The translations under genes were made by a program, and so were the position numbers. A DNA stretch of 64,000 bases from Escherichia phage vB_EcoM_KAW1E185. This document shows positions 16,356 to 62,895 of the stretch, piece after piece. Numbering within the stretch: the stretch's first letter is position 1; each line of letters opens with the position of its first letter. The stretch is from sequence record NC_054922.1. One strand, written 5' to 3'. The notes beneath the pieces are model-generated. The model searched no databases. It was not told the DNA's origin and saw nothing but the letters and a program-made list of their open reading frames with translations.

Positions 16356-16556
16356 ATGGTACAAAAATTAATGGCACTTGTTGATGCCATAAAAGGTAAT
16401 AAAAAACGTATAGCTTTTACTATTTCTGCTATGGTAGGAATTTTACTCTGGAACTTTATTTTATCACCTGTTGCAATTGCACATGGTATTAATATTCCAG
16501 TAGTTACTCTTGATACATTCGTAGATTTAGCATTTGCTTTAGTTGGGTTAATTTAA
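16356..16556 (+). CDS. candidate plus-strand small hydrophobic protein (66 aa)
   Basis: ATG preceded by AAGGAGGA Shine-Dalgarno; product has two hydrophobic segments; sits between gene 56 and the gene 61 stop. Confidence 0.3.
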   Translation: MVQKLMALVDAIKGNKKRIAFTISAMVGILLWNFILSPVAIAHGINIPVVTLDTFVDLAFALVGLI

Positions 16557-17581
16557 GTCTTAGCATATTTAGATAGCCGCATTTTAGCCATCAACCCCTG
16601 GGCAATATTATTTTTCATATATTCCATAATTTGTTCAGGGGTTGCACCTTCCTTTCTAATCATATCATTAACATCTTTTGATTTCCAGGGAGATTTATCC
16701 CAAAACATAACCCTTTCTCCTGCATCAACTAATTTAGTCATTCGCTTGATAGTGTCAGGGTGACGAGGTTCATTATCTAAAACCCACACTCGTCTATCTT
16801 TAAATGGAACAACTTCTAGGTCTAATTGACCACCCGTAATAGCTATACCATTTTCAATAAAAAGCGAATCTATAGGTCCTTCTAGAACATATACATCACC
16901 ATCTTTAACTCGTTCGACTCCATATATTTTTGTTGCCTCAGGATAAGCTTTAATGGTGATATATTTTTGAGGAGCATCTTTCTTTAATGCACGTCCTTGA
17001 AAAGACTCAGCTTTTCCGTTAGCATTATAAATTGGAATAACAAGACGAGGCTCAGAAATTTCCTTTTTGTATGTTCCTGGTGCTATGCTATTAACTAATT
17101 TAGGCCATTCGGTTGTAAACCAAAGATATTTCCATTTATCCTTTGGAATACAACGAGCTTTTACATATTTTATAATTGGATGGTCTTCCGCCAGTTTATC
17201 TAATCTAACACATGACGGAAGAGATTTAATTATTTTCTTCTCAGGTCGCTTAGGAAGTTCTTTAGGTTTTTCTACTGGACGACTTTTACCTTTTTCTTTT
17301 CTTATTTCAAAGATATACTCACGATATAAATCAGGTTCAAACTCCTTTAAATATATTCCGATTGGTGCATGATAGTTACAGTTATAACAATGAATATTTC
17401 CTTCATTATTATCACCATAATACCATCCACGGGCTTTATTTTGGTCGGTTTTTGAATCTCCGCAAACAGGGCATCTAAACCGCAATTTAAAAGTTGAACT
17501 ATTATTTACTTGTGTGAATTTAGGTAAATGAGCTAATGCACGATACGCAAACTCATTATCAATCCAAGGTATTGATGACAT
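16553..17581 (-). CDS. 61: DNA primase (gene 61)
   Basis: 342 aa as in T4 gp61; zinc ribbon CPVCGD...CYNC; TOPRIM EGPIDSLF. Confidence 0.9.
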   Translation of the reverse strand: MSSIPWIDNEFAYRALAHLPKFTQVNNSSTFKLRFRCPVCGDSKTDQNKARGWYYGDNNEGNIHCYNCNYHAPIGIYLKEFEPDLYREYIFEIRKEKGKSRPVEKPKELPKRPEKKIIKSLPSCVRLDKLAEDHPIIKYVKARCIPKDKWKYLWFTTEWPKLVNSIAPGTYKKEISEPRLVIPIYNANGKAESFQGRALKKDAPQKYITIKAYPEATKIYGVERVKDGDVYVLEGPIDSLFIENGIAITGGQLDLEVVPFKDRRVWVLDNEPRHPDTIKRMTKLVDAGERVMFWDKSPWKSKDVNDMIRKEGATPEQIMEYMKNNIAQGLMAKMRLSKYAKT

Positions 17582-17583
17582 TT

Positions 17584-17748
17584 TTACTCTTCTTTTTCTT
17601 TAGATTCCTCTTTCTTCTTTTTAGGAATCTGTTCAGGACCTTTATTTACTACAGCACCTGACGTTGTTCCAGTAGAGATATTTTCAGGATTACCACCTGA
17701 ATCTCCAGCGACCATATCTTCTTTAATAAATTCTTTATATGTTTTCAT
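17584..17748 (-). CDS. small protein (54 aa) with capsid-targeting-sequence-like N-terminus; 61.1 position
   Basis: own translation MKTYKEFIKEDMVAGDSGGNPENISTGTTSGAVVNKGPEQIPKKKKEESKEKEE; resembles the internal-protein CTS MKTYQEFIAE. Confidence 0.4.
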   Translation of the reverse strand: MKTYKEFIKEDMVAGDSGGNPENISTGTTSGAVVNKGPEQIPKKKKEESKEKEE

Positions 17749-17749
17749 A

Positions 17750-17794
17750 TTAACCTCTATTCATAAAAGCATTAAAAATTTGGTCATCAATAGA
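17750..17794. repeat. 45-bp direct repeat, copy A (3' end of the 118-aa gene)
   Basis: ttaacctctattcataaaagcattaaaaatttggtcatcaataga; one mismatch to copy B. Confidence 0.8.
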
Positions 17795-18106
17795 TGGCGC
17801 AGTAATATTTTCTGCATCATTTAGCAAATCATTAATTTCATCAGATAGCATAACACATGTACCTTTATTTCCTGTAATTGTTACTGCACAATTACGAACG
17901 TTTTCTTTATCAAATTTTAGGTTAATATTTTCGTAGTGAAAATCCTTTAATGCTGAATATATTTTTAAAATGAAATTGTCTTTTACTACAATAAACCCAA
18001 CCTCACTATTAAAACGCGGTTCATGGAAACTGTAATAAACCTTTTCATCTATAAAATCGTATGAAATTTTTTCCATTTTTAAATATGAAAATTCAGAACT
18101 ATACAT
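17750..18106 (-). CDS. hypothetical protein (118 aa) sharing its C-terminus with the adjacent 208-aa protein
   Basis: ends SIDDQIFNAFMNRG. Confidence 0.45.
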   Translation of the reverse strand: MYSSEFSYLKMEKISYDFIDEKVYYSFHEPRFNSEVGFIVVKDNFILKIYSALKDFHYENINLKFDKENVRNCAVTITGNKGTCVMLSDEINDLLNDAENITAPSIDDQIFNAFMNRG

Positions 18107-18107
18107 A

Positions 18108-18152
18108 TTAATCTCTATTCATAAAAGCATTAAAAATTTGGTCATCAATAGA
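18108..18152. repeat. 45-bp direct repeat, copy B (3' end of the 208-aa gene)
   Basis: ttaatctctattcataaaagcattaaaaatttggtcatcaataga. Confidence 0.8.
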
Positions 18153-18734
18153 AACATTTGCTTTAGACTGTTTTTCTGATGGTAATTCATATCCACATAT
18201 TACAATTTTGTGATCAATATCAAAATACACAGAAGCAATATGATTAATGTTGTTTTCAGTAAAGTCTAAATCAACATCAATATCTTTTTGACCACAGCCC
18301 AAAGGATAAATAATGCGAGTAATTCGATTATCTTTAACAAATATTCCACCGACATACTCTGTGCTGCGTTTAAAGTCTACACGCCGACGAAATGAAAAAT
18401 ATTCAGGCTCTCTATGAGCTCGGCTCATAGGACACAACGAGTAACTAGAATAAGAGATGTCAAATCCTACGCCTTCGATATGAGCCAAAGTGTCATGATT
18501 AAACCAATTATAATCGTACGCCAAATCCATTAGATTATAATATGTAAAAGGCACCGGATTAACATCATTAGTCACAAGCATGTAATTAGCAACTGCTATA
18601 ATTTCATTGTTTTTAACGAATACAAACCGTGATTGATGCGAATGACCTGGACCCGCGTTTTCACGATTAATGATATAACACTGGGCACCTTTATATTTGT
18701 ATGTATCTTTGCACTTGTGCATTTGATAAAGCAT
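18108..18734 (-). CDS. hypothetical protein (208 aa), 61.2 position
   Basis: ends SIDDQIFNAFMNRD. Confidence 0.5.
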   Translation of the reverse strand: MLYQMHKCKDTYKYKGAQCYIINRENAGPGHSHQSRFVFVKNNEIIAVANYMLVTNDVNPVPFTYYNLMDLAYDYNWFNHDTLAHIEGVGFDISYSSYSLCPMSRAHREPEYFSFRRRVDFKRSTEYVGGIFVKDNRITRIIYPLGCGQKDIDVDLDFTENNINHIASVYFDIDHKIVICGYELPSEKQSKANVSIDDQIFNAFMNRD

Positions 18735-19027
18735 TATTCACCTATCACTTCAGCGATGATATTTTTATTATTAAAGTTTTTATCGCAATACAGAACATAA
18801 TTATACTGCATTACACCACCAGACTTAAGCTGTTTTTGCACTTCGGCTTTCATTTCAGGACGATCGCGCTCAACGATATTCATAATATCTGCTTCAATTT
18901 GAGTTTCAACCTCAGTCTGATCCGCAGTCATAGACCATTCACACAAATCTTTATCATATCCTGCCATAGCAGGCTGAGCAGCACAAGAAGCCAAAGTAAA
19001 AATTGTAGCAAAGATAAATTTTTTCAT
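18734..19027 (-). CDS. sp: spackle periplasmic protein (Sp)
   Basis: 97 aa with N-terminal signal peptide; size and position match T4 sp (61.3). Confidence 0.7.
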   Translation of the reverse strand: MKKFIFATIFTLASCAAQPAMAGYDKDLCEWSMTADQTEVETQIEADIMNIVERDRPEMKAEVQKQLKSGGVMQYNYVLYCDKNFNNKNIIAEVIGE

Positions 19028-19346: not shown

Positions 19347-19529
19347 TTATCCTCGGCAATCCACTTCACACACTTTCTTGTCATCAATGAAAGCTTTAAC
19401 TAATGCTTTATTAACTTCAGCATATTGAGTAGTAGCCCATTGAACATCATCTTTCATCATTGTGATTTCTTTAGTAAACATGCTTTCATTCTTAAACCAC
19501 CCCATAAAAACTACCTTTACCAATTCCAT
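19347..19529 (-). CDS. dmd: Dmd (discriminator of mRNA degradation; antitoxin against RnlA/LsoA)
   Basis: 60-aa ORF MELVKVVFMGWFKNESMF..., matches T4 Dmd as recalled. Confidence 0.75.
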   Translation of the reverse strand: MELVKVVFMGWFKNESMFTKEITMMKDDVQWATTQYAEVNKALVKAFIDDKKVCEVDCRG

Positions 19530-62421: not shown

Positions 62422-62895
62422 TTATTTGAACGATTTAACGTACTGAATAGAACCTTTACTATTCACAAAGGCAATTTTACCATTTTTGTTATACATGGTA
62501 GCAGTACGTTGATAGCCATAAGTTTGTTTACCAGATTGATAACCAACTAATGCGAAATTATCTTCACCCATTTTATTCTGCTTAGCACGAATGCGTTCAT
62601 GACCATGTGCCATAAGAACCTTAGCATCACCAGTTGCAATGGATCTACGAGTTTTTTCATCTTCAACTGTATTAACAAAGTCGTCAAATGAATCAAATTT
62701 AGCATGAGATTTATTATACAGTTTTCCATCTACTGCATAATTATATCCTTGTACATCCATCTCAACTTCTGTACCATCATCCAGTACAGCAGTGATTTTC
62801 TGTCCTTTTTTAAATTTCAAAAGATCAGTAAAAGATTCAGCAATAATTTGAGAATTAATAGCTGCTTCAGTAATAAATTCTTGATATGTTTTCAT
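62422..62895 (-). CDS. internal protein (IP) with capsid-targeting sequence
   Basis: starts MKTYQEFITEA (T4 IP CTS is MKTYQEFIAE); located just before gene e as the ip genes are. Confidence 0.7.
   Translation of the reverse strand: MKTYQEFITEAAINSQIIAESFTDLLKFKKGQKITAVLDDGTEVEMDVQGYNYAVDGKLYNKSHAKFDSFDDFVNTVEDEKTRRSIATGDAKVLMAHGHERIRAKQNKMGEDNFALVGYQSGKQTYGYQRTATMYNKNGKIAFVNSKGSIQYVKSFK

Follow-up and report, generated by a model that had tools for sequence, protein, structure and literature searches.

Introduction

Head assembly in bacteriophage T4 is among the best-studied of assembly pathways, and the capsid-targeting sequence (CTS) of its internal proteins (IPs) serves in vaccine and delivery work as a means of bringing foreign proteins into T4 capsids. 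The mechanism by which so short a tag, of ten residues, directs a protein to the prohead core is, to our knowledge, not understood. Here we describe gene 61.1 as it occurs in a 64,000-nucleotide (nt) stretch of DNA from Escherichia phage vB_EcoM_KAW1E185 (NC_054922.1), called the window hereafter. This open reading frame (ORF) appears to join, in 54 residues, a CTS, a cleavage site of the type used by the prohead protease gp21, and a copy of an N-terminal segment of gp23, the major capsid protein.

Three groups of T4 proteins offer points of comparison. The internal proteins IPI, IPII and IPIII begin with the decapeptide M-K-T-Y-x-E-F-I-x-E, in which residues 4 and 7 are the main determinants of targeting and residues 8 and 10 those of processing, and which ends in the gp21 site [LI]-x-E (work of Mullaney & Black, reviewed in PMC9026906). 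They are basic, abundant, hypervariable and made late, and their genes lie near e or 57B. The capsid protein gp23 is cut by gp21 after Glu65, and its residues 66-91 are known as the 'N-fist' (PMC7136217). In the unexpanded prohead, the N-terminal region of gp23 is disordered, points inward and probably touches the scaffold core; on expansion it moves to the outside, makes the N-arm and N-fist and helps to form the Soc site, and the N-terminal mutations A66D, A94V and G97S alter head length (PMC9546572, PMC9958956). The third group, comprising gp24 with its 10-residue propeptide, gp67 and gp68, contains small and acidic sequences with Glu sites near the N-terminus (gp24 MAKINELLRE/S and gp67 MEGLIE/A, where the slash follows the Glu). 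These belong to the late head cluster 20-67-68-21-22-23-24 and have genetic evidence for a role in the head; 61.1 has neither.

Gene 61.1 has been named as one of the few ORFs that are conserved in T4-like genomes and have no known function (PMC1524935). We found no statement in the literature on its function or on its presence in virion proteomes, and no paper that takes up the features described below, namely the CTS-like start, the copy of gp23, the existence of two architectures and the way in which the capsid protein is tracked. The gene itself and its annotation are already known, the link to gp23 only as an automatic product name.

Similarity of gene 61.1 to the N-terminal region of gp23

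The window is a segment of a Tequatrovirus (T4-like) genome and shares 98% identity over 1.8 kb with Escherichia phages teqhal, PinkRuby and others. The 54-amino acid (aa) ORF is the orthologue of T4 gene 61.1 (NP_049649, UniProt P39228), with 96% identity to T4 gp61.1. The two proteins differ at position 4, which is Tyr here, as in canonical CTSs, and Phe in T4 (MKTFKEFIKE), and at position 26 (T here, I in T4). The short-form family phrog_1823 matched the ORF over residues 1-54 (E = 7e-34), and a search of Pfam and NCBIfam returned no match (Pfam at E <= 1). An earlier reading of the sequence, referred to here as the original prediction, had described a small early-region ORF adjoining gene 61, with a CTS-like start, a Gly/Ser-rich remainder and a Lys/Glu-rich tail. 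The ATG start, the TAA stop, the 2 nt that separate the ORF from the ATG of gene 61, and the composition of its middle and tail all agree with that description (Table 1). The 118-aa ORF that precedes 61.1 has a stop codon ending 1 nt ahead of the 61.1 ATG, and the 3' end of 61.1 is purine-rich, directly ahead of the gene 61 start. The predicted mass of the full-length protein is 5.9 kDa and that of the 44-residue product of the predicted cut is 4.6 kDa; the corresponding isoelectric points (pI) are 5.46 and 5.03.

Records of related phages name 61.1 either 'hypothetical' or 'major capsid domain-containing protein'. Because of the latter label, we compared 61.1 with gp23 directly. BLASTP aligned residues 2-38 of 61.1 with residues 57-93 of T4 gp23 without gaps (43% identity, E = 1e-8). 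In this alignment, Glu10 falls on gp23 Glu65, the gp21 maturation site, and Y4, F7, I8 and E10 correspond to F59, F62, L63 and E65 of gp23. The homologue in phage KP15 showed 55% identity to residues 61-100 of KP15 gp23 (E = 2e-11). A profile of 20 family members, aligned with a gp23 N-terminal profile using hhalign, gave a probability of 97.3% (E = 2e-11, gp23 residues 63-101) and again placed Glu10 on Glu65. When searched against every PDB chain, the family profile matched gp23 alone (E = 1.7e-6, residues 51-101). Across these comparisons, identity is 43-55% over 37-40 ungapped residues that include the cleavage Glu, GD-G, I-A-x-G-x-T-S-G-A-V and G-P, followed by a basic pair or patch. The Lys patch of codons 43-54 is conserved in the family and aligns with M98-V-R-R101 of gp23, and the spacing from Glu to basic patch is 32 aa in T4 61.1 and 34 aa in T4 gp23.

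These alignments indicate that 61.1 is a free-standing copy of gp23 residues ~57-101, that is, of the end of the propeptide, the gp21 site, the N-fist and the start of the N-arm. The description of the remainder as Gly/Ser-rich, though correct as to composition, was thus incomplete, since that part copies the gp23 cleavage site and N-fist; this content changes the likely role of the peptide. The protein has only 54 residues, shows no Pfam match at E <= 1 and matches gp23 within residues 51-101 alone, and a body of HK97 fold is thus missing. By these alignments, then, 61.1 is homologous to a 45-residue piece of gp23 and yet is no capsid protein, and it differs from gp23 also in being a separate, early gene. 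A recent gene conversion from gene 23 was considered and rejected, as the two genes share 46% nt identity with random third positions and a longest shared run of 5 nt. In view of this lack of similarity at the DNA level, the copy is ancient.

A putative capsid-targeting sequence in gene 61.1

The original prediction had compared the first ten residues, MKTYKEFIKE, with the CTS of the T4 internal proteins and with that of an IP encoded elsewhere in the window. The 8/10 identity to MKTYQEFIAE and to MKTYQEFITE was confirmed, as was the comparator, which belongs to the internal virion protein family phrog_3155 (DUF7412) and lies on the minus strand. Identity rises to 9/10 with the CTS of JS98 IPIII (MKTYKEFIAE), which indicates that Lys5 occurs in genuine CTSs. 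All four CTS determinants (Y4, F7, I8 and E10) are found in 61.1, and the single copy of the [LI]-x-E motif is I8-K9-E10. The first 30 nt of 61.1 and of the IP gene in the window are nearly equal (27/30), with the same codon at all 8 shared residues.

The window contains 977 Met-initiated ORFs with 25 aa or more, and among these, identity to the CTS exceeded 4/10 only in the IP (10/10) and in 61.1 (8/10). The relaxed pattern M[KR][TS][FY]xx[FVIL] occurred once outside the family in 5877 Met-initiated ORFs from 64 related 8-kb loci. The resemblance of 61.1 to the CTS goes well past what chance would produce. The prefix M-K-T-[YF]-x-[ED]-F is retained in short-form orthologues of several Tevenvirinae genera, and the N-terminus of 61.1 gave weak matches to internal-virion-protein PHROGs (phrog_5341, E = 0.076). 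We considered the possibility that the N-terminus is unconstrained, since in JS98 the IPs keep MKTY.EFI.E and 61.1 begins with MKSFKEVMNE; this was dropped, as MKSFKEV fits the relaxed pattern, which is all but missing from the background. A neighbouring gene in a pelagiphage starts with the similar MKSFKDF. The N-terminus of 61.1 therefore stands as a credible CTS, judged by its retained determinants and its identity to known examples.

The correspondence of Y4, F7, I8 and E10 with F59, F62, L63 and E65 suggests that the CTS imitates the end of the gp23 propeptide. Such mimicry would explain how the CTS targets proteins to the core, and it provides a concrete hypothesis for how the CTS is recognised. 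The 10-residue propeptide of gp24, MAKINELLRE, has a similar layout (E6, L7, L8 and E10).

Of the hallmarks of IPs, 61.1 shows the CTS sequence and lacks the late promoter, the basic and hypervariable character and the location near e or 57B; in view of the three that fail, it should not be filed as an internal protein. In contrast to the IPs, 61.1 is acidic, early, conserved and adjacent to the primase gene, its body resembles a capsid-protein segment, and many of its orthologues have no N-terminal CTS. We rate 61.1 instead as a prohead-type protein with a putative CTS and gp21 site, whose cargo would be a mimic of a capsid segment.

Distribution and conservation of the 61.1 family

A tblastn search detected the peptide in 1431 phage records, all of them T4-like, from hosts that include Escherichia, Klebsiella, Acinetobacter, Aeromonas, Vibrio and Proteus. 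Two architectures were found. Short forms of 51-64 aa occur in the sampled Tevenvirinae (Tequatrovirus, Dhakavirus) and their IMG/VR relatives, in Krischvirus and in Biquartavirus. In T-even-type phages, the part ahead of the conserved Glu is a leader of 9-12 residues that fits the sequence definition of a CTS. The leaders include MKTYKEFIKE, MKTYKEFVNE, MKTFKDFINE, MKTFKEFVNE, MKSFKEVMNE, MKTYKEFVKLNE and MKTYKEFVTE; that of RB49, MIGFKQFVEENKLKE, retains F4, F7 and V8, and one variant, MTLLEKYKQSLSE, is not CTS-like. Long forms of 123-177 aa (a few of ~245 aa) occur in Slopekvirus (KP15), Schizotequatrovirus (VH7D, KVP40), Acinetobacter phages, Bragavirus and many others, and carry a helical N-domain of ~105 aa ahead of the same gp23-like segment. 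The window ORF matched the long-form family phrog_2086 over positions 109-154 only (E = 2.6e-16), and it contains the C-terminal segment of the long forms, [LIVM]-x-E-[DE]-M-V-A-G-D ... G-P ... K-K-K. The N-domain of the long forms is not encoded anywhere in the window.

Neither the long forms nor their wider relatives gave any match above threshold in Pfam. An AlphaFold2 model of a long form was confidently helical in the N-domain and disordered in the capsid-like tail. A Foldseek search of PDB with this model yielded no match at E < 1, and a search of BFVD returned uncharacterised phage proteins only. The removable N-terminal modules of more than 100 residues in gp50, gp53 and gp54 of phage SPN3US, which precede a Glu-type protease site (PMC5694885), are possible analogues of the N-domain. 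The analogy is one of layout, with no relationship in sequence or fold shown, and processing of the long forms is a prediction.

In alignments of the family the Glu is invariant or nearly so, as are M-V-A-G-D, an I, two G, a P and the Lys patch, and in Straboviridae members the P3 residue ahead of the Glu is hydrophobic (L, I, V or M). The ratio of nonsynonymous to synonymous substitution rates (dN/dS) was determined for 29 core codons in 41 distinct sequences. Its median was 0.13, with saturated synonymous sites (median pS 0.71, pN 0.18) and pN lower than pS in 99.8% of pairs. The gene is therefore under strong purifying selection.

The 61.1 homologue lay on the same strand as gene 61 and just upstream of it in all 64 of the IMG/VR loci, mostly at a distance of 3-60 nt (range 3-658 nt). 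Extra ORFs separate the two genes in KP15 and RB49. The distance between gene 41 and 61.1 varied from 3 to 3175 nt in the same loci, and 61.1 is the sole gene between 41 and 61 in Aeromonas phage SW69-9 and Proteus phage PM2. From this variation we conclude that the counter-defence genes found at this position in T-even phages are an insertion and not the native context of 61.1.

Distant relatives in marine and other phages

An exhaustive profile search of a library of 1.84 billion proteins yielded 1860 clusters at E <= 1e-3, most of which matched the N-domain only, in proteins of 160-470 aa. The N-domain relatives correspond to phrog_18642 (the long forms to phrog_2086 and phrog_18642), have no Pfam family and are fused to varied C-terminal extensions, up to a total of 470 aa. 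Annotated carriers of these wider relatives are T4-superfamily phages, including Kyanoviridae, and among them are Pelagibacter phage HTVC008M, Methylophilales phage Melnitz and phage C48C1. In these three phages, the N-domain and the capsid-like segment are encoded by adjacent, separate genes.

The capsid-like segments were compared with the major capsid protein (MCP) of the same phage. HTVC008M gp143 reads MKTFTDF...QQE/DIANVAGDGAV...VVKKKK, beside FLGE/IANVTGSAV...LVRR in its own MCP, and Melnitz gp30 reads ...IKTE/DAPANASGSAV...VVVKKK, beside FLSE/AAPTNSTGSAV...LVRR. In a cross-comparison, the phage's own MCP scored highest for both HTVC008M gp143 (36 vs 17) and Melnitz gp30 (41 vs 33), and Straboviridae members matched Straboviridae capsid proteins only (scores of 70-110 vs about 20-30). 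The spacing from Glu to basic patch also followed the cognate capsid protein, being 21 in the mimic and 20 in the MCP of HTVC008M, 23 and 22 in Melnitz, and 20 and 23 in C48C1. Covariation of 61.1 and gp23 was examined in enterobacterial, Acinetobacter and Klebsiella phages, where the N-terminus of gp23 is almost invariant, so that there is little to compare. A match of 'KIASG' in KP15 61.1 to its own gp23 at first appeared specific and was dropped, as it is merely the consensus of the 61.1 family.

CTS-like starts recur at these loci. In HTVC008M they are found in the neighbouring genes gp139 (MKSFKDFQNVNE), gp142 (MRTYRAFKKD, a very basic protein) and gp143 (MKTFTDF), and none was found in a further 84 kb of the genome; the three genes may together form a cluster of internal-protein genes in this marine T4-like phage. 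Melnitz gene 31 starts with MKTFLQF, and C48C1 gene 102, immediately after the N-domain gene, with MKTFQEFMKQ. Given this recurrence, the MKT[FY]x[ED]F start is old at this locus and is no recent loan from a T-even IP gene. In C48C1, a member of the Kyanoviridae, the N-domain gene and a short form of 58 aa (MKTFQEFMKQFEEE/ITNN...DSSTVIVRKK) lie ~36 kb from the primase gene, so that the linkage to primase found in Straboviridae does not hold throughout the superfamily.

Possible roles of the 61.1 peptide

The simplest view of a peptide that displays both a CTS and the gp23 segment which faces the scaffold core and undergoes cleavage by gp21 is that it acts as a ligand and substrate of that machinery. 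Our preferred reading, held tentatively and with somewhat less than even confidence, is that 61.1 enters the prohead, where gp21 cuts it after Glu10 and frees an N-fist-like peptide of 4.6 kDa. The prohead scaffold and protease would recognise 61.1, which would enter the core of the assembling prohead; cleavage would then release 44 residues that start at Asp11 (DMVAGDSGGNPENIS(I/T)GTTSGAVVNK) and carry the Lys patch. In the long forms, the ~105-aa N-domain would serve as a removable delivery module. The role of the freed peptide is the weakest step: it could occupy, or compete for, docking sites of the gp23 N-terminus on scaffold or lattice, or it could be a competing substrate that tunes the action of gp21. 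A broader version, which we consider doubtful, is that the family is an unrecognised and near-universal component of head assembly in the T4 superfamily, which copies the maturation junction and N-fist, acts in trans and evolves together with the capsid protein. It would be delivered by the CTS in T-evens and by the N-domain in other phages, would be released by gp21, and would then either dock at the N-terminus sites of neighbouring subunits in lattice or scaffold (for example near vertices or portal) or time the action of gp21.

Several observations weigh against packaging and cleavage. Head proteins are normally made late, and the placement of 61.1 in the early region by the original prediction was correct: the RNA of T4 61.1 is classed as early (supplement of PMC9697503), and no late-promoter motif TATAAATA is present on the coding strand nearer than 39 kb upstream. 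Two such motifs lie upstream of the comparator IP, which is preceded also by gene e. The T4 protein went undetected in a proteome time course of infected cells (supplement of PMC9697503), which is weak evidence since the peptide is small and poor in trypsin sites. The product is acidic, unlike the classical internal proteins. The P1' residue is Asp or Glu in most family members, as against Ala or Ser at the gp21 sites examined (gp23 E65/A, gp24 E10/S). The long forms carry no N-terminal CTS, the marine homologues do not strictly keep [LI]-x-E, and the short form of C48C1 shows no clear sequence match to its own capsid protein. A role in head assembly leaves the constant linkage to the primase gene unexplained. 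Finally, and as a weak point, two papers on T4 head cryo-electron microscopy contain no mention of unmodelled, extra or unidentified density.

The expression data would be accommodated if the peptide were never packaged and acted in the cytoplasm as a mimic or decoy, made early and binding a factor that recognises the nascent N-terminus of gp23, such as a capsid-sensing defence, EF-Tu/Lit, a chaperone or a protease, so as to block or tune that contact. The early RNA class and the absence of a nearby late promoter fit such a role, as do the disorder of the capsid-like segment in the AlphaFold model, as expected of a linear-motif mimic, and the way in which the segment follows the cognate capsid protein in HTVC008M and Melnitz. 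T-even 61.1 also borders the counter-defence genes dmd, 61.4, sp and adfA. There is, moreover, a precedent in Lit exclusion, which gp23 triggers through a conserved region in its N-terminal quarter that binds EF-Tu; according to a review, Gol comprises 29 residues and lies where this first quarter is most conserved. The similarity of 61.1 to gp23, however, stops at about residue 101, which would be ahead of the Gol core. Counter-defence genes are usually patchy, whereas this family is near-universal in Straboviridae over very different hosts, and the variable island lies between 41 and 61.1 rather than around 61.1, which stands alone there in several genera. A decoy also leaves the conserved cleavage-type Glu, the hydrophobic P3 residue and the CTS-like leader unexplained. 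We consider this role rather unlikely; if true, 61.1 would represent a kind of conserved capsid mimic for which there is no earlier description.

The original prediction went beyond the CTS-like start and proposed, by analogy with IPI, that the protein is packaged, injected with the DNA and active against restriction. Its first part has held up, in that a CTS-like start and a gp21-type site are present, and these, together with the weak N-terminal matches to internal-virion-protein PHROGs and the HTVC008M cluster of CTS-like starts with its one very basic member, are what an IP-like protein, cut by gp21 and countering restriction, or having some other early effect, in the next host, would display. 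The analogy to IPI fared poorly. After the predicted cut, 44 disordered and acidic residues (pI of 5.0-5.5 before and after the cut) would be left without a fold, and the conserved part copies a capsid segment and resembles no inhibitor. IP genes are hypervariable, lineage-specific and late, whereas 61.1 is conserved (dN/dS of about 0.13), early and linked to the primase gene, and the long forms lack a CTS. An injected, IPI-like anti-restriction effector is unlikely. Similarly improbable is a role as translational leader of the primase or as replication accessory, in which 61.1 would deliver ribosomes to gene 61, set its level, or work with the helicase-primase. This would account for the constant position just upstream of gene 61 and on its strand, at a spacing of 2 nt here, for a purine-rich tail that could be the ribosome-binding region of gene 61, and for early co-transcription with replication genes. 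Mere coupling, on the other hand, cannot produce selection at the amino-acid level with saturated synonymous sites, or similarity to the capsid protein and tracking of it; the gap to gene 61 ranges up to 658 nt, with intervening ORFs in KP15 and RB49, and some 36 kb separate the homologous locus of C48C1 from the primase. That the ORF is a chance one, or a decaying fragment without function, might be suspected from its very small size, the lack of a Pfam or NCBIfam family and its non-detection in one proteome study. This is effectively refuted by its presence in more than 1400 phage genomes, the median dN/dS of 0.13, a good ribosome-binding site and its listing as a conserved ORF (PMC1524935).

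If 61.1 is a ligand and substrate of the prohead machinery, as we prefer, a gene of 165 bp would offer a simple genetic handle on the interactions between scaffold, protease and capsid N-terminus, including those that control head length. We expect that a specialist in T4 head assembly would find the result surprising, and the hypotheses are cheap to check.

Coordinates and neighbouring genes

Table 1. Features of gene 61.1, its surroundings and the sequences compared with it. Positions are those of the window, except for entries with an L number, which refer to other loci.
Feature	Position	Strand	Description	Basis
ORF 61.1	17584..17748	-	ATG start, 54 aa, TAA stop; protein MKTYKEFIKEDMVAGDSGGNPENISTGTTSGAVVNKGPEQIPKKKKEESKEKEE	ORF list
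Codons 1-10 of 61.1	17719..17748	-	MKTYKEFIKE, CTS-like decapeptide ending in I-K-E; predicted gp21 site, cut after Glu10	
Codon 4 of 61.1	17737..17739	-	Tyr4	
Codons 11-42 of 61.1	17623..17718	-	DMVAGDSGGNPENISTGTTSGAVVNKGPEQIP; apparent copy of the N-terminus of mature gp23* (N-fist 66-91 and start of N-arm)	
Codons 43-54 of 61.1	17587..17622	-	KKKKEESKEKEE; Lys-rich patch, then acidic tail	
Shine-Dalgarno AGAGG	17754..17758	-	5 nt before the 61.1 ATG, within the 3' end of the preceding ORF	Read from sequence
Gene 61 (DNA primase)	16553..17581	-	Invariant downstream neighbour; ATG 2 nt past the 61.1 stop	ORF and annotation
MotA-box-like sequence	~17746..17775	-	AATGCTTTTA, 12 nt, TAATAT; at the end of the preceding ORF	
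118-aa ORF	17750..18106	-	Between 61.2 and 61.1	
Gene 61.2 orthologue	18108..18734	-	AdfA, anti-DarT factor	Pfam PF23813, E = 1.9e-135
sp	18734..19027		Counter-defence island	
dmd	19347..19529		Counter-defence island	
Internal head protein (comparator)	62422..62895	-	MKTYQEFITEA start, canonical CTS	phrog_3155, E = 6e-102; DUF7412
Late-promoter motifs TATAAATA	63498 and 63511		Upstream of the comparator	
T4 gp23	L002:4946-6511			
KP15 long form	L003:2144-2632			
VH7D long form	L005:2183-2662			
DP45 (Acinetobacter phage) long form	L006:2165-2641			
HTVC008M locus	L082:2694-5538		CTS-like starts in gp139, gp142 and gp143	
C48C1 locus	L088:3091-3267, L089		N-domain gene and 58-aa short form	

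A sequence at the end of the ORF preceding 61.1 resembles a MotA-box middle promoter. Its transcript would begin within the first codons of 61.1, and such a promoter would therefore drive gene 61 rather than 61.1. Between gene 41 and 61.1, the window contains a counter-defence island made up of AdfA, sp, a 61.4-like ORF and dmd. The 118-aa ORF is paralogous to the C-terminal half of AdfA/61.2 (35% identity, E = 2e-9), with which it shares the C-terminal SIDDQIFNAFMNR, and it gave a Pfam AdfA match of 1.1e-7. T4 is without this ORF, and its 61.2 abuts 61.1.

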